A DNA stretch of 7,979 nucleotides from a virus (IMGVR_UViG_2526164652_000007), one strand, 5' to 3'. Positions 690-7,267 are shown, counted from the first letter of the stretch. Numbers and translations: made by a program. Notes: a model not told the origin generated them from the letters alone.

Positions 690-887
690 TGGAGCACCTG
701 TGTTGTTCTGAGGTGAGCATATCACCTCTGTTCAGGTGGCCAAATTCAGTGTGCCACTTCATTACAGGCATTGAAAGAGATCGGAATAAAAGCTGGCTTT
801 TCTGCTTTTTCAGAAGAATAAACTCATCTACAATCTTGCGCGGGGCTGAACTCCCGCTGAGTAACACCGTGCCACCGGAGAAAACCG

Positions 888-1166
888 ATGGCACGCAACG
901 CAAAATATTACAATCATGATAATTCGACCGTTCTTGCCCACACGCACGAGCGGTATTCTCATGCATTTAAGTCAGACTGGTACCAGCATCCCTCATGCAC
1001 TGAAGAACAGGCCGAATGGCTCATTCAGTGTTACCGCAGGCGCGGATGCGAGGTTAAAAAAGCCCTTAGCCTCGACTACCGTCACTGGATAATCTCCGTC
1101 AGGCTCCCTTACTCCGAACAGCCACCGCGTCCGTCCCGCACATTCCAGCAACGGATCTGGAGGTAA
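888..1166 (+). CDS. hypothetical protein (92 aa), first gene of the prophage fragment after the IS911 junction
   Basis: ATG at 888 with GGAGA 8 nt upstream; stop TAA 1164-1166 lies 1 nt before the GTG start of the next gene, suggesting translational coupling. No family recognised. Confidence 0.5.
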   Translation: MARNAKYYNHDNSTVLAHTHERYSHAFKSDWYQHPSCTEEQAEWLIQCYRRRGCEVKKALSLDYRHWIISVRLPYSEQPPRPSRTFQQRIWR

Positions 1167-1167
1167 C

Positions 1168-2217
1168 GTGCGGGTATTACTTCGACCTGTTCTGGTTCCG
1201 GAACTCGGGCTGGTGGTCCTTAAGCCCGGTCGTGAATCCATGCCGGTATTCCACAATACCCGGTTACTGGTGGAGCCGGAACCGAAAAGCATGCGTAATC
1301 TGCCGTCCGGGGTCGTTCCTGCCGCTCGCCAGCCGCTGGTGGAAGACAAAACATTGCTGCCGTTTTTCAGTAACGCACGGGTGATTCGTGCTGCTGGTGG
1401 TGCTGGTGCATTGTCTGACTGGCTGTTGCGCCATATTAAATCCTGCCAGTGGCCACACGGCGATTATCATCACAGCGAAACCGTCATTCACCGTTATGGT
1501 ACCGGCGCAATGGTGTTGTGCTGGCACTGCGACAACCAGCTGCGTGACCAGACATCCGAATCACTCGAGCAACTTGCTCATCAAAACCTGTCAGCATGGA
1601 TGATTGACGTCATCGGTCACGCAATAAGCGGTACGCAGGAGCGTGAATTATCTCTAGCTGAATTATCCTGGTGGGCGGTCCGCAATCAGGTGGCGGACGC
1701 GCTACCGGAAGCGGTATTACGTCGTTCGCTGGGGTTGCGTGCGGAAAAAATCCGCTCAATGTACCGTGAAAGCGACATCGTACCGGGAGAGCAGACCGCC
1801 ACCAGCATACTGAAACAGCGCACAAAAAATCTTGCGCCGCTGCCTCACGCCCACCAGCAACAGAACCCACCACAGGAAAAGACGGTGGTCAGCATTGCCG
1901 TTGATCCTGAGTCTCCGGAATCTTTCATGAAACGACCTAAACGTCGCCGCTGGGTTAACGAGAAATACAAACGCTGGGTGAAGACACAGCCGTGTGCGTG
2001 TTGTGGTAAGCCAGCCGACGATCCCCATCACCTGATTGGTCATGGTCAGGGCGGAATGGGGACAAAATCTCACGATATTTTCACGCTACCGCTGTGTCGG
2101 GAGCATCACAACGAGCTTCATGCGGATCCTCTGGCGTTCGAAGAAAAGCATGGTTCTCAGGTTGATTTAATTTTTCGTTTTCTTGATCACGCCTTTGCAA
2201 CTGGCGTGCTTGGGTAA
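1168..2217 (+). CDS. DUF968-family prophage protein (YdfU-like), 349 aa, with an HNH-like Cys/His C-terminal motif
   Basis: GTG start at 1168 with GGAGG 4 nt upstream. The sequence (MRVLLRPVLVPELGLVVLKPGRESMPVFHNTRLLVEPEPKSMRNLPSGVVPAARQPL... CACCGKPADDPHHLIGHGQGGMGTKSHDIFTLPLCREHHNELH) matches my memory of E. coli Qin-prophage YdfU (same length class). Not confirmed by search. Confidence 0.75.
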   Translation: MRVLLRPVLVPELGLVVLKPGRESMPVFHNTRLLVEPEPKSMRNLPSGVVPAARQPLVEDKTLLPFFSNARVIRAAGGAGALSDWLLRHIKSCQWPHGDYHHSETVIHRYGTGAMVLCWHCDNQLRDQTSESLEQLAHQNLSAWMIDVIGHAISGTQERELSLAELSWWAVRNQVADALPEAVLRRSLGLRAEKIRSMYRESDIVPGEQTATSILKQRTKNLAPLPHAHQQQNPPQEKTVVSIAVDPESPESFMKRPKRRRWVNEKYKRWVKTQPCACCGKPADDPHHLIGHGQGGMGTKSHDIFTLPLCREHHNELHADPLAFEEKHGSQVDLIFRFLDHAFATGVLG

Positions 2218-2229
2218 AAGAGGTGACTG

Positions 2230-2586
2230 ATGCTCATAGATTTGGTTTTACCTTACCCGCCGACGGTGAACACTTACTGGCGACGCCGTGGCAGCACATA
2301 TTTTATCTCGGAGGAGGGAAAGCGTTATCGCCGGGCTGTGGCGCTTATTGTTCGCCAGCAGCGGCTGAAATTAAGCCTGTCCGGAAGGCTGGCGATAAAG
2401 GTGATTGCAGAGCCACCGGATAAGCGTCGTCGCGACCTGGACAATATCCTGAAAGCACCGCTGGATGCGCTGACGCATGCGGGAGTGTTAATGGACGATG
2501 AGCAGTTTGATGAAATCAATATCGTTCGTGGTCAGCCAGTATCTGGTGGACGTCTGGGGGTGAAGATTTACCCCATAATGCATTAA
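2230..2586 (+). CDS. rusA: RusA-family Holliday junction resolvase (118 aa)
   Basis: ATG at 2230 with AAGAGG SD ~7 nt upstream. Contains the RRRDLDN motif and overall resemblance to DLP12 RusA (PDRRRRDLDNL... GGRL). Position in a nin-like region upstream of Q is syntenic with lambdoid phages. Confidence 0.8.
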   Translation: MLIDLVLPYPPTVNTYWRRRGSTYFISEEGKRYRRAVALIVRQQRLKLSLSGRLAIKVIAEPPDKRRRDLDNILKAPLDALTHAGVLMDDEQFDEINIVRGQPVSGGRLGVKIYPIMH

Positions 2587-2600
2587 GAGCAGGTCAAAAA

Positions 2601-5757: not shown

Positions 5758-5786
5758 GCCATCAGTAGTTAACTGGTGGCTTTTTT
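5758..5786 (+). terminator. intrinsic terminator upstream of the holin gene
   Basis: 8-bp stem GCCATCAG (5758-5765) / CTGGTGGC (5773-5780) with one G-U pair, 7-nt loop, then TTTTTT (5781-5786). Confidence 0.6.
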
Positions 5787-5821
5787 ATTGTTGTCAGCTT
5801 CCGGATAACGGGAGACGGGGT

Positions 5822-5884
5822 ATGGACCAGATGGAAAAAGTCACAACAGGTGTGTCATACACCACGTCAGCGGTGGGAACGGGC
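5822..5884 (+). pseudogene. 5' fragment (21 codons) of a phage 21/Stx-phage-type S holin (pinholin family), truncated by IS600 insertion
   Basis: GGAGACGGGG then ATG 5822 with a second in-frame ATG at 5831 (dual-start motif). MDQMEKVTTGVSYTTSAVGTG matches my memory of the N-terminus of 933W/phage 21-type S. The frame runs straight into the TGA that begins the IS600 terminal repeat at 5885. Confidence 0.6.
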
Positions 5885-5927
5885 TGAGGTGTACTGGCAA
5901 TAGCGGACACTACCATTTGTTCTTTTT

Positions 5928-6833
5928 TTAAGCAGCCATCTGATGATATTTTTCCCTGAAGGCTGCCGGGGAGATATTCCCCAGACGAGAGTGACGACGC
6001 TGACGATTGTAGAAAATCTCAATGTATTCCCGTATTACTGAGATGGCTTCATCCCGGTTATTAAAACGATAGTGGCTCAGGCTCTCATTTTTCAGCGTTC
6101 CCCAGAAGCTTTCCATCGGAGCGTTGTCGTAACAGTTACCTTTACGCGACATTGATGTTTTCAGACCAAACTGCTCCTGTATGACCCGGTAATCGTATGC
6201 GCAGTACTGTGAACCTCGATCAGAGTGGTGGATTAGCCCGGCAGGTGGGCGCTGGCTCCTGAGCGCCATAAACAGGGCTTTACCTGTCAGCTCTTTTGTC
6301 ATGCGCTCTCCCATGGCGTAGCCGACAATTTCACACGTATAAACATCTTTGATGCCAGCGAGGTACAACCATCCCTCCTGTGTGGCAACATACGTCAGGT
6401 CCGCCACCCAGACCTGATTTGGTGCTGTAGGAGCGAACGTCTGGTTCAGCAGATTTGGCGCAACTGGCAGATTGTGGTTCGGGTTCGTAGTCGCTCTGAA
6501 CTTGCGTTTCTGCTTACAGCGTAGCCTTAGCTCCTTACGAAGACGTGCCAGTCGGTCACGACCAACGATGATGCCATTCTCTGCCAGCTCCGTCTGGAGC
6601 CGCCGGGTTCCATATGTTTCGCGAGTGCGGATATGTGCCACCTTAATCTCCAGTTTTAGCCGCTCATCACTTTGTTTTCTGTCTGAGGGTTCATGCTGTA
6701 CCCAGTTGTAATAACCGCTCCTGGATACACCAAATACCTGACACATCGCTTCAATGGGAAATTGTTGTCGCCATTGTTCGATTAACGCGTATTTTTCAGC
6801 GACTCCTGTGCAAAATACGCTGTTGCTTTTTTT
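5928..6833 (-). CDS. IS600-like OrfB (DDE transposase), expressed as OrfAB by -1 frameshift near 6825-6833
   Basis: The -1 frame is open from the slippery site to stop TAA (5930-5928). It contains the DDE-type motifs WVADLTY, HSDRGSQY and CYDNAPMESFW and the C-terminus ...NRQRRHSRLGNISPAAFREKYHQMAA. Confidence 0.8.
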   Translation of the reverse strand, partial: KKSNSVFCTGVAEKYALIEQWRQQFPIEAMCQVFGVSRSGYYNWVQHEPSDRKQSDERLKLEIKVAHIRTRETYGTRRLQTELAENGIIVGRDRLARLRKELRLRCKQKRKFRATTNPNHNLPVAPNLLNQTFAPTAPNQVWVADLTYVATQEGWLYLAGIKDVYTCEIVGYAMGERMTKELTGKALFMALRSQRPPAGLIHHSDRGSQYCAYDYRVIQEQFGLKTSMSRKGNCYDNAPMESFWGTLKNESLSHYRFNNRDEAISVIREYIEIFYNRQRRHSRLGNISPAAFREKYHQMAA

Positions 6834-7084
6834 AATATATCTCGCTCAAGGCGAGCTTCATTTAACGCCTTACGCAGTTGCAGAATTTCAGATTCCAGTT
6901 CAGCCAGCGTGCGGGAACCAGGAGTACCGAGCCCTTTTCTGGCGGCGGTAACCCATTGTCCTAAAGTGCCTTCAGGAAGGGATAATCGGGAAGCGCCTTC
7001 ACTGATCGAAAGTTGATTTTCAAGAACCGTTCTGACAGCTTCGGCTTTGAACTCTTTAGAGTAACGTTGGGTTTTTCTGCTCAT
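6782..7084 (-). CDS. IS600-like OrfA (HTH), 100 aa
   Basis: ATG at 7084-7082 (minus); MSRKTQRYSKEFKAEAVRTVLENQLSISEGASRLSLPEGTLGQWV...RDILKKATAYFAQESLKNTR has the HTH plus leucine-zipper layout of IS3-family OrfA. Confidence 0.85.
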   Translation of the reverse strand: MSRKTQRYSKEFKAEAVRTVLENQLSISEGASRLSLPEGTLGQWVTAARKGLGTPGSRTLAELESEILQLRKALNEARLERDILKKATAYFAQESLKNTR

Positions 7085-7267
7085 TATTAGCTCCTTCTGA
7101 TGCCATTCTATTTCAGGAAGGAGTGTCCGTTAAACTCAGGCTACCTCACCTTTAGACTAAAGAGTTTGTAACGCTATGTAAGTGATTTTTTCTGGTTTAG
7201 ATATTTATATGTCCGGCCAAATTGAGGTGTGTTTAAATGTAATTGCACATTGATTGTAGGAGGAATA

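Follow-up and report, generated by a model that had tools for sequence, protein, structure and literature searches.

In Stx phages, the stx genes occupy the slot between Q with its tRNAs and the holin, which is the cargo slot of the locus described here. [quoted passage not shown] A further system for comparison is the IS26 translocatable unit, a circle with a single IS copy that leaves and re-enters at a like IS copy, giving direct repeats and no target-site duplication. IS26 uses a conservative transposase reaction for this purpose, whereas an IS3-family element taking such a route would need RecA-type homologous recombination.

Shigella reference chromosomes contain 229-348 IS insertions each; five IS are expanded throughout Shigella, IS600 and IS911 being two of them, and where homologous copies are present, IS elements promote rearrangements and deletions between them (Hawkey et al. 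2020, PMC7373316). Because genome erosion by IS elements is well known in Shigella, the finding presented below is real but ordinary: the locus is a case of IS-driven decay of the well-known Shigella kind. Three points very probably hold jointly, namely that IS911 is a plain insertion, that a recombinant IS600 gave the present gene order, and that the lysis and morphogenesis genes were lost in an older event.

Content of the window and its recurrence

The window, meaning the whole stretch of 7,979 nucleotides analysed, is the late-regulatory module of a Qin-type lambdoid cryptic prophage of Shigella flexneri K-272, and all 7979 bases are found at 100% identity in K-272 contig AFGX01000024.1. 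The module contains rem, DUF968, RusA, Q, two tRNAs, the iraM/STnc100 cargo and the start of the holin. It belongs to a decaying prophage remnant whose order has been cut and reshuffled by IS elements; holin and rem are dead, and Q, RusA, the tRNAs and the iraM-like gene are intact. The features are listed below, where fragment A denotes the hok/sok leader fragment; the stretch from relB to the holin is called fragment B.

1-761 (-): IS911, IRL-proximal 761 bp with the IRL tip at 761; orfA and the 5' part of orfB
387-689 (-): IS911 orfA, matching the NCBIfam IS3-family transposase model
762-821 (+): 3' end of rem, 60 nt, by alignment to intact rem of L001, L017 and L020
762-765: right-hand copy of the IS911 target duplication, TTAC, within the rem 3' end
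888-1166 (+): 92-aa ORF conserved in Qin-type prophages, no Pfam family
1168-2217 (+): YdfU-like DUF968 protein, 349 aa (PF06147, E = 2.6e-76)
2230-2586 (+): RusA Holliday-junction resolvase (PF05866, E = 1.8e-17)
2601-3422 (+): Q-type late antiterminator, 273 aa (PF03589, E = 6.3e-55)
3566-3641 (+): tRNA with anticodon CAT (Met by ARAGORN; tRNA-Ile by RefSeq on the E. coli homologue)
3743-3819 (+): tRNA-Arg (TCT)
3957-4283 (+): 108-aa ORF, cargo between Q and holin, no family match
4319-4450 (+): small DUF3927 ORF (precomputed Pfam match PF13064 on homologous gene calls)
4516-4705 (+): STnc100-family sRNA (Rfam RF02076, 132.4 bits; gathering score 47)
4731-5066 (-): IraM-like anti-adapter protein, 111 aa (NCBIfam NF007393, E = 4e-48)
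5326-5514 (+): DUF1737 protein (PF08410, E = 3.4e-17)
5511-5672 (+): 53-aa conserved ORF
5822-5884 (+): holin stump, first 21 of 71 codons, phage-21-type class II, by alignment to the intact holin of L020 and L001
5885-7148 (-): complete IS600, 1264 bp, very probably a recombinant copy; same orientation as IS911
5928-6746 (-): IS600 orfB (NCBIfam NF033516, E = 8.3e-100)
6782-7084 (-): IS600 orfA (NCBIfam NF033516, E = 5.1e-13)
7149-7707 (+): fragment A, displaced Qin early-region DNA, by similarity to IAI1 Qin and L001
7268-7447: 59-aa membrane ORF in fragment A
7537-7708: orphan hok/sok leader in fragment A (Rfam sok model RF01794, 99.8 bits)
7708-7971 (+): 5' part of an ISNCY-family (IS1202/ISEsa1-like) element, cut by the next IS600
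7972-7979 (+): IRL tip of a third IS600, 8 bases (TGAGGTAG), opposite in orientation to the IS600 at 5885-7148

Identical copies of the Q protein occur in many S. flexneri genomes, and the L001 homologue of the IraM-like protein is annotated as IraM in RefSeq. No stx-like ORF and no stx family match was found anywhere in the window. The hok/sok sequence was also considered as a complete type I toxin-antitoxin locus and rejected, as the leader stands alone: from 7708 on, the ISNCY element takes the place of the hok coding sequence. An HTH ORF of this element begins at 7782; its full 437-aa transposase in L023 matches NF033594 (E = 7e-137), and RefSeq annotates the element in IAI1. Meanwhile, the third IS600 carries on beyond the window, in L014 at 16805-18004 and in L021 at 7972-9171.

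Draft contigs that end in IS copies mask the true extent of a prophage remnant, and both the window and the K-272 contig begin within IS911. It might be suspected that the draft assembly was mis-joined over the IS600 repeat of 1.26 kb. The identical layout is, however, present in the complete chromosome CP026803.1 of strain 89-141 (99.95% identity) and in a second draft, the K-227 contig (99.94%). The arrangement is therefore not an assembly artefact, an explanation that we regard as scarcely credible.

IS911 in rem and IS600 in the holin

The IRL tip of IS911 (reverse complement ...GTGTGCCACTTCA) stops at 761, in agreement with the initial annotation, which had the left end of the element abut prophage DNA at 761/762. 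That annotation further took IS911 as one bracket of the prophage fragment, and here it was mistaken. IS911 is an ordinary insertion in rem with the 4-bp target-site duplication TTAC, and not a fragment boundary. A full copy of 1249 bp is present in strain 89-141 (L014 8346-9594) with TTAC on its flanks. L014 reads ...CACTTCATTAC before IS911 and TTACAGGC... after it, and the uninterrupted rem of L017 and L020 reads CACTTCATTACAGGC. A direct duplication of 3-4 bp and a contiguous target, as expected of a simple insertion, are thus both found, the left junction lying outside the window. On the far side of IS911, likewise outside the window and seen in the twin genomes, prophage DNA goes on with the 5' part of rem, hokD, relE and relB.

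IS911 and IS600 had been proposed as the pair bounding a mobilisable or amplifiable unit. At the DNA level the two are unrelated: their global identity is about 53%, no exact word longer than 11 nt is shared and their terminal repeats differ. Hence the two cannot recombine with each other or form a joint composite transposon, and a unit bounded by this pair was rejected. It should be pointed out that a segment does not become mobile or amplifiable just by lying between two unlike IS types.

The element at 5885-7148 is a complete IS600, as it has the length of about 1264 bp, imperfect terminal inverted repeats starting TGAGGT... and two IS3-family ORFs. Its ends read TGAGGTAGCC... (IRL) and TGAGGTGTAC... 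(IRR), and its limits were set by the similarity edge shared with more than 20 other copies in differing flanks, to which it is 99.0-99.7% identical. The SNPs among the IS600 copies are too sparse and mosaic to reveal a chimeric copy.

The earlier description of the holin side was borne out in every point. The ORFs of IS911 and IS600 all lie on the minus strand, so the two elements share one orientation. The holin ATG is at 5822, and IS600 follows after 63 nt (21 codons); the uninterrupted homologue has 71 aa and matches Pfam PF04971 (P21 holin S family, E = 1.4e-32). The 3-bp flanks are GGC at 5882-5884 and CCT at 7149-7151, which is no direct repeat, and no shift of the boundaries yields one. 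To the right of IS600 the holin would continue with TACTGGTTCC, but the actual flank is CCTTTAGACT. As the duplication is missing and the target is not contiguous, a simple IS600 insertion was rejected. The IRR end of the element meets holin nt 63, and the IRL end meets Qin DNA that is native upstream of relB.

Origin of the permuted order

In the Qin prophage of E. coli IAI1, the order on one strand is A (9001-9572), ISNCY, ydfW, flxA, ydfV, relB, relE, hokD, rem, p92, DUF968, Q and holin. Fragment A normally lies about 3 kb upstream of relB, as in the Qin prophages of E. coli and likewise in S. flexneri 71-2783 (L017). Among ten further loci encoding the exact 59-aa protein, nine have A and ISNCY upstream of flxA, relB, relE and hokD, and in the tenth A, ISNCY and flxA are followed by an IS66-type insertion, and then the locus ends. 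Window positions 7149-7720, from A into the start of ISNCY, are 100% identical to IAI1 Qin, and L014 15982-16805 (A and part of ISNCY) is 99.6% identical to it. The window lineage has the Qin-type synteny relB-relE-hokD-rem-DUF968-Q-holin with A, ISNCY and flxA upstream, in permuted order. L017 contains, besides A upstream of relB, the identical junction of IS600 IRL with CCTTTAGAC; the IS600 there is down to a 69-bp stump.

The initial annotation explained the right-hand junction by insertion of IS600 in the holin and a one-sided rightward adjacent deletion, which took the lysis and morphogenesis genes and brought in unrelated downstream DNA. The missing duplication and the holin that does not resume speak for it. 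Because the right flank is DNA normally upstream of the whole fragment, however, a simple adjacent deletion cannot make this junction. The flank is native upstream of relB in IAI1 and 71-2783 rather than 3' of the holin, the ten further loci agree with that position (the tenth as far as flxA), and the IRL-A junction of L017 exists independently of the holin; we thus judge the explanation to be very improbable. A second lambdoid prophage (L001-like, at ompW), joined by IS600 recombination, is even harder to accept as the source of A. Fragment A does share 99.3% identity with the sequence immediately preceding hokD in the prophage that E. coli 1EC213 carries at ompW, and in L001, at the same identity, it leads straight to the hokD ATG. 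But the match to IAI1 Qin is perfect, the A-ISNCY junction is not in L001, and in L017 A stands in this very locus, on the upstream side of relB.

The gene loss itself has another origin. Fourteen further S. flexneri loci have the holin broken off by IS600 at nt 161 (blast limits); a motif scan read this junction in 11 of the 14, with three other right flanks. In the six simplest of these loci, the holin is joined directly via IS600 to a truncated ydfJ. This earlier event, common to S. flexneri, explains why the lysis and morphogenesis genes are missing, and an adjacent deletion plausibly lies behind it in L002-type genomes. What stands of the earlier claim of IS-mediated deletion or recombination is therefore that an IS600-mediated event joined the flanks of the window copy; the missing genes belong to the older event. 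As a general caution, when a prophage gene is truncated and the IS beside it has no target duplication, this alone does not show that the IS deleted the missing genes.

Exchange of flanks at the holin-adjacent IS600 is well documented, with four different right-hand partners over the S. flexneri lineages. The left flank of the neighbouring IS600 in L017 is the exact reverse complement of the L002 right flank, which proves an inversion between IS600 copies at this element. L016 equals L017 with the stretch enclosed by two direct IS600 copies taken out.

In strain 89-141, the whole block is flanked by direct IS600(+) copies at L014 5624-6888 and 16805-18004; only 8 nt of the second copy, from 7972, fall inside the window, and the first is outside. 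The outer flanks match E. coli ydeI and mgtT/mgtS/ydeE on one strand, with dgcZ missing. The block of the window lineage is thus placed between truncated ydeI and mgtT, and not next to ydfJ as in L002-type S. flexneri. All three IS600 copies of the block are without a target-site duplication (GAG/AGC, GGC/CCT and GTG/TTC), and the right-hand one has a 51-bp internal deletion near IRR. Judged from this layout, the amplifiable-unit proposal, which failed for IS911 and IS600, may survive in altered form for the direct IS600 pair.

The following history best explains these data. The ancestral order A-B has very probably turned into B-IS600-A, a circular permutation, with the topology of the circle or tandem-duplication junction that arises when two direct IS600(-) copies, formerly on either side of A...B, undergo homologous recombination. 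By then the lysis and morphogenesis genes had very probably already been lost through the holin nt 161-IS600-ydfJ' junction common to S. flexneri. We infer, with somewhat less than even confidence, that a circle carrying A-IS600-B came out of the ydfJ site and was taken up by IS600 homology between ydeI and mgtT. Further small losses next to IS600 would have removed 98 bp of the holin and 568 bp of the ISNCY element. Against this route, extra steps are needed for the holin junction at nt 63 instead of 161 and for the ISNCY cut 568 bp earlier than in L017. The direction of events is read from a few dozen loci without a dated phylogeny. Each locus was covered for about 10 kb per side, so that the reciprocal junctions, namely the former Qin site by ydfJ in 89-141, the partner ...GATGAACCT joined to IS600 and the holin remainder, lie outside.

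Unequal crossing-over between direct IS600(-) copies, giving a tandem A-B-IS600-A-B later trimmed by IS600 events, would yield the same junction topology with no free circle. Later trimming fits the single-copy DUF968 gene in CP026803.1, and the title of McDonough and Butterton 1999, on the stx region of S. dysenteriae 1, names tandem amplification between IS copies. Nevertheless, more steps than excision and reintegration are required to reach the ydeI-mgtT interval and drop the outer copies, and no duplicated remnant is seen within 10 kb, so we consider this course unlikely. Transposition of the IS600-flanked block as a composite transposon into the ydeI-mgtT interval would explain its IS600 boundaries and its new chromosomal position. 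It is quite improbable all the same: the outer flanks GAG and TTC form no duplication, dgcZ has gone together with a portion of ydeI, which is more than an interruption of these genes, an internal deletion affects the right-hand IS600, and the internal permutation B-IS600-A is left unexplained.

Excision and reintegration of a circle thus remains our preferred, if tentative, route. The IS600-bounded block (relBE, hokD, Q, tRNAs, iraM, orphan hok leader) would then possibly be a translocatable unit whose circle re-entered at a different IS600 some 10 kb off and took the place of dgcZ. If this is true, Shigella IS3-family copies are able not only to delete regulatory and cargo modules of prophages but also to carry them from one chromosomal site to another. 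Loss of dgcZ together with intact Q, tRNAs and iraM-like gene could bear on S. flexneri physiology; beyond annotation, the significance of the locus is small.

Comparison with known systems

The closest relative is E. coli Qin of the K-12/IAI1 type, with which the locus shares the gene order orphan hok leader, ISNCY, flxA, ydfV, relBE, hokD, rem, ydfU (DUF968), Q and holin. L002-type S. flexneri also shares the chromosomal neighbours of Qin, namely ydfJ, ydfI, ydfZ, ydfH, ydfG and dcp. Unlike in IAI1 Qin, the part from DUF968 to the holin is a mosaic variant (about 88% identity in DUF968), and RusA, two tRNAs and the iraM/STnc100 cargo are found where IAI1 has cspF and cspB. The block also differs from E. 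coli Qin in having no lysis and late genes, a permuted order and the site ydeI-mgtT.

The defective Stx1 prophage of S. dysenteriae type 1, to which the locus had been likened, is similarly a lambdoid remnant in a Shigella chromosome and carries IS600. The likeness is an analogy only, since that prophage lies at sapC/ycjW and the window block lies elsewhere and is without stx. The layout in strain 89-141 matches the outcome of IS26-type excision and reintegration, although the route here is inferred. Compared with the IS-mediated reduction described for Shigella (PMC7373316), the locus is one more instance, lineage-specific only in its junctions and permuted order.

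Window layout and source genomes

The window is 100% identical to contig AFGX01000024.1 of assembly GCA_000213715.2, which belongs to Shigella flexneri K-272 (PMC6397287) and begins inside IS911. The same arrangement was found at 99.95% identity in locus L014 on the complete chromosome CP026803.1 of strain 89-141, serotype Y (PMC9455713), and at 99.94% identity in a K-227 contig (L018). Because the arrangement recurs in the complete chromosome and the K-227 contig, and hence in three independent assemblies, an assembly mis-join was excluded.

The layout below was drawn from the ORF list, a tRNA scan, an Rfam scan and family searches. 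Curated-family matches were obtained for IS600, IS911, the ISNCY element, the Qin prophage, RusA, Q, IraM, STnc100 and the hok/sok leader.

Features of the window (coordinates, strand, feature)
1-761, minus, IS911, partial (orfA 387-689)
762-821, plus, rem, last 60 nt
888-1166, plus, 92-aa ORF (p92)
1168-2217, plus, DUF968 / YdfU-like protein
2230-2586, plus, RusA
2601-3422, plus, Q antiterminator
3566-3641, plus, tRNA (CAT), tRNA scan
3743-3819, plus, tRNA-Arg (TCT), tRNA scan
3957-4283, plus, 108-aa ORF
4319-4450, plus, DUF3927 ORF
4516-4705, plus, STnc100 sRNA (Rfam, 132 bits)
4731-5066, minus, IraM-like protein
5326-5514, plus, DUF1737 protein
5511-5672, plus, 53-aa ORF
5822-5884, plus, phage-21-type holin, first 21 codons
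5885-7148, minus, IS600, complete, 1264 bp
7149-7707, plus, fragment A: 59-aa membrane ORF and hok/sok-type leader RNA (99.8 bits)
7708-7971, plus, ISNCY-family element, 5' part
7972-7979, plus, IRL tip of another IS600

All features reported in the initial annotation were present on re-check. The IRL tip of IS911 ends at 761, both transposase genes lie on the minus strand, and holin coding stops after 63 nt (the intact holin has 71 aa; PF04971 match, E = 1.4e-32). IS600 was delimited by comparison with more than 20 other copies whose flanks differ, similarity to all of them ending at the same points. Its own flanks, GGC and CCT, are no direct repeat, and shifting the boundary yields no 3-bp repeat either; the sole ambiguity concerns the IRR/holin junctions (nt 63 and nt 161), where the first T of the IS equals the next holin base. 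To the right of IS600 the sequence reads CCTTTAGACT... instead of the expected holin continuation TACTGGTTCC....

The CAT-anticodon tRNA at 3566-3641 was called tRNA-Met by ARAGORN, while a near-identical E. coli prophage gene is annotated as tRNA-Ile in RefSeq (lysidine-type, ileX/ileZ-like). Together with tRNA-Arg (TCT) it matches the tRNA set usually carried after Q by lambdoid phages of the Stx type. The full-length STnc100-family sRNA ends 25 nt from the end of the convergent iraM-like gene (4516-5066), and both occupy the cargo slot between Q and holin. The third IS600, present in the window by its first 8 nt in plus orientation, truncates the ISNCY element; in 89-141 this copy (L014 16805-18004) carries a 51-bp internal deletion in which the last part of orfB is lost together with most of the IRR, although the terminal 14 nt remain.

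Fragment A and the older holin junction

In E. coli 1EC213, the prophage at ompW (L001) has a 99.3% identical copy of fragment A, which leads straight to the hokD ATG and precedes rem. A search with A alone gave 100% matches including the ISNCY junction in many E. coli genomes. In the Qin prophage of IAI1, for example, the order on one strand is dicA, dicC, A, ISNCY, ydfW, flxA, ydfV, relB, relE, hokD, rem, p92, ydfU (DUF968), Q, holin and lysozyme. A and ISNCY precede flxA, relB, relE and hokD in nine of ten further loci with the exact 59-aa protein of A, the tenth ending after flxA behind an IS66-type insertion. S. flexneri 71-2783 (L017, CP024470.1) also keeps A upstream of relB, its order being IS600(+), a 69-bp IS600 IRL stump, A, ISNCY, IS600(+), ydfV', relB and so on to holin nt 161 and IS600(-); its IRL/CCTTTAGAC junction equals that of the window base for base. 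Because the IAI1 Qin, the further loci and L017 share this order, sequence comparison identifies A as part of the same prophage, normally upstream of fragment B, the relB-to-holin piece. The identical A-ISNCY junction upstream of relB in the IAI1 Qin, together with the same order in further E. coli Qin loci, led to rejection of an origin from a second, ompW-type prophage. The window lineage shows B-IS600(-)-A in place of A-B, neither piece having changed orientation.

The ancestral simple insertion was sought among GTDB representative genomes, where the IRL/A junction had no match, so Shigella of this type are evidently not among the representatives. An inverted-repeat search of the ISNCY element gave no clear terminal repeats, and its left limit (7708) is defined only as the point where homology to L001 ceases. 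Fragment A includes an orphaned hok/sok leader (7537-7708), which in the ompW prophage abuts the hokD ATG (L001 12001-12710). In Qin, a 3.3-kb block (ISNCY element, ydfW, flxA, ydfV and relBE) parts this leader from the hokD coding sequence, which would explain the leaderless hokD after relBE. The two ends of the block share a repeat of just 16 nt, aggagaagcaggctat (L022, a Qin locus, 9544-9559 and 12861-12876).

Loss of the lysis and morphogenesis genes had been ascribed to the window's own junction, whereas an older S. flexneri junction explains it. In the simplest arrangement (L002, L004-L006, L010 and L011), holin nt 161 is followed by IS600 and a truncated ydfJ, and then by ydfI, ydfZ, ydfH, ydfG and dcp, the K-12 neighbours of Qin; the loss can be accounted for by this shared joint. 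The intact version of the prophage with which comparison had been proposed was found in L020, which retains holin, lysozyme, Rz, terminase and portal genes and carries an identical DUF968 protein ahead of the holin. The nearest relatives of the window's B segment are in the L017 group (99.8% identity, identical DUF968 protein), which makes derivation of the nt 63 junction from that at nt 161 the simplest assumption. The extra 98-bp holin loss would have arisen by an IS600-adjacent deletion, or by a second nearby insertion followed by recombination.

The IRR/ydfV' junction also differs by 8 bp between L002 (6716/6717) and both L014 (6888/6889) and L017 (8141/8142), reading IRR/CTGACATGC versus IRR/AGCAACACTGACATGC. 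The differences of 8 bp (ydfV'), 98 bp (holin) and 568 bp (ISNCY) suggest recurrent small losses beside IS600 ends. L013 and L015, from Shigella/Escherichia with larger chromosomes (4.84 and 5.13 Mb) and an identical DUF968 protein, carry IS600 after the 108-aa ORF, near window-equivalent position 4285; L013 has an inversion of the iraM-to-holin segment and retains an intact 71-aa holin. Interruption of the holin by IS600 hence appears specific to S. flexneri.

IS911 insertion and IS600 recombination

The initial annotation treated IS911 as a boundary of the fragment, but prophage DNA carries on beyond it. In L014 the junctions read ...GTCACTTCATTAC/TGAAGTGGTC...(IS911, 1249 bp)...CCACTTCA/TTACAGGC..., while uninterrupted rem in L017 and L020 reads GTCACTTCATTACAGGC. 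IS911 is a clean insertion in rem with a 4-bp duplication, TTAC, past which follow the 5' part of rem, hokD, relE, relB and a ydfV fragment, up to an IS600(+). As IS911 and IS600 share 53% global identity and a longest common word of 11 nt, they cannot recombine homologously or serve as two ends of one transposon. Therefore the interval between them does not constitute the mobilisable unit that had been proposed.

The IS911 target lies 4 bp from a mimic of its own terminal repeat, rem AGTTTGTCACTTCA matching the IRL tip AGTGTGCCACTTCA at 12/14 positions (window 748-765; L014 8330-8350 and 9580-9600). Because of this resemblance, BLAST alignments to uninterrupted rem run 14 nt into IS911. IS911 is known to prefer targets resembling its ends; the open-access literature gave no usable statement on its insertion beside such sequences. 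The 89-141 copy (L014 8346-9594, outside the window) encodes a truncated OrfB because of a premature stop (...RQLLW*YQIRQSMS...) upstream of the OrfB stretch NCWDNSPMERFF, and may be non-autonomous.

A rightward adjacent deletion from the holin, one of the mechanisms first put forward, cannot place upstream DNA to the right of IS600, and the right flank is prophage DNA from upstream. The part of that interpretation which stands is joining mediated by IS600; the adjacent deletion, the IS911 boundary and the IS911-IS600 unit do not. IS600 follows holin nt 161 in 14 other S. flexneri loci, with three further kinds of right flank, namely CCCATCTTGC (ydfJ'), GACATCAATC and, from another prophage, CTTATTCTAAG. 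L017 bears the mark of an inversion between two IS600 copies: the sequence left of a neighbouring IS600(+) matches the L002 right flank exactly in reverse complement. L016 differs from L017 in lacking the stretch enclosed by two direct IS600 copies. At the sequence level, recombination of the holin-adjacent IS600 with other IS600 copies is directly shown. An alignment of 24 IS600 copies, examined for SNPs that would mark a chimeric copy, held only 17 informative sites, in a pattern too mosaic to reveal one.

Present location, proposed relocation of the block and known systems

In 89-141 the order is ydfH, ydfG, dcp, ydeJ, IS1, ydeI', IS600(+), B, IS600(-), A-ISNCY', IS600(+), mgtT, mgtS, ydeE, eamA and marB. 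The sequences bordering the block match ydeI and mgtT/mgtS/ydeE of E. coli, all on a single strand; dgcZ is missing, and all three IS600 copies lack a duplication (GAG/AGC, GGC/CCT and GTG/TTC). The holin/IS600/A joint has the topology that results from recombination of two direct IS600(-) copies, one to the left of A (the full-length ancestor of the L017 stump) and the other within the holin, giving an excised circle or a tandem duplication. In the former case, the segment IS600-A-ISNCY-IS600-B would be excised as a circle from the ydfJ site and then recombine homologously into an IS600 located between ydeI and mgtT. This inferred two-step route, the shortest we could construct, would yield both the permutation and the flanking direct repeats, and needs the added small losses of 98 bp of holin and 568 bp of ISNCY. 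Duplication between direct IS600 copies followed by trimming is a live alternative; a tandem duplication gives the same novel joint as the circle. The reciprocal junctions (partner ...TTTTACGATGAACCT/TGAGGTGTACTGG, at the IS600 IRR end) lie beyond the 10 kb of flanks examined. The holin reads GGCTACTGGTTCC from nt 64, and an IRL joined to nt 64 or nt 162 would be reciprocal.

Shigella reference chromosomes carry 229-348 IS insertions each, IS600 and IS911 being among five expanded IS (PMC7373316). The locus is a case of IS-driven rearrangement and erosion in Shigella, a kind of feature already known; on a mildly interesting reading, the block between the IS600 copies would have been relocated whole to another position on the chromosome. 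The likeness to the Stx prophage of S. dysenteriae 1 proposed initially is a fair analogy in kind, but that prophage lies at sapC/ycjW and carries stx, whereas the window has neither.
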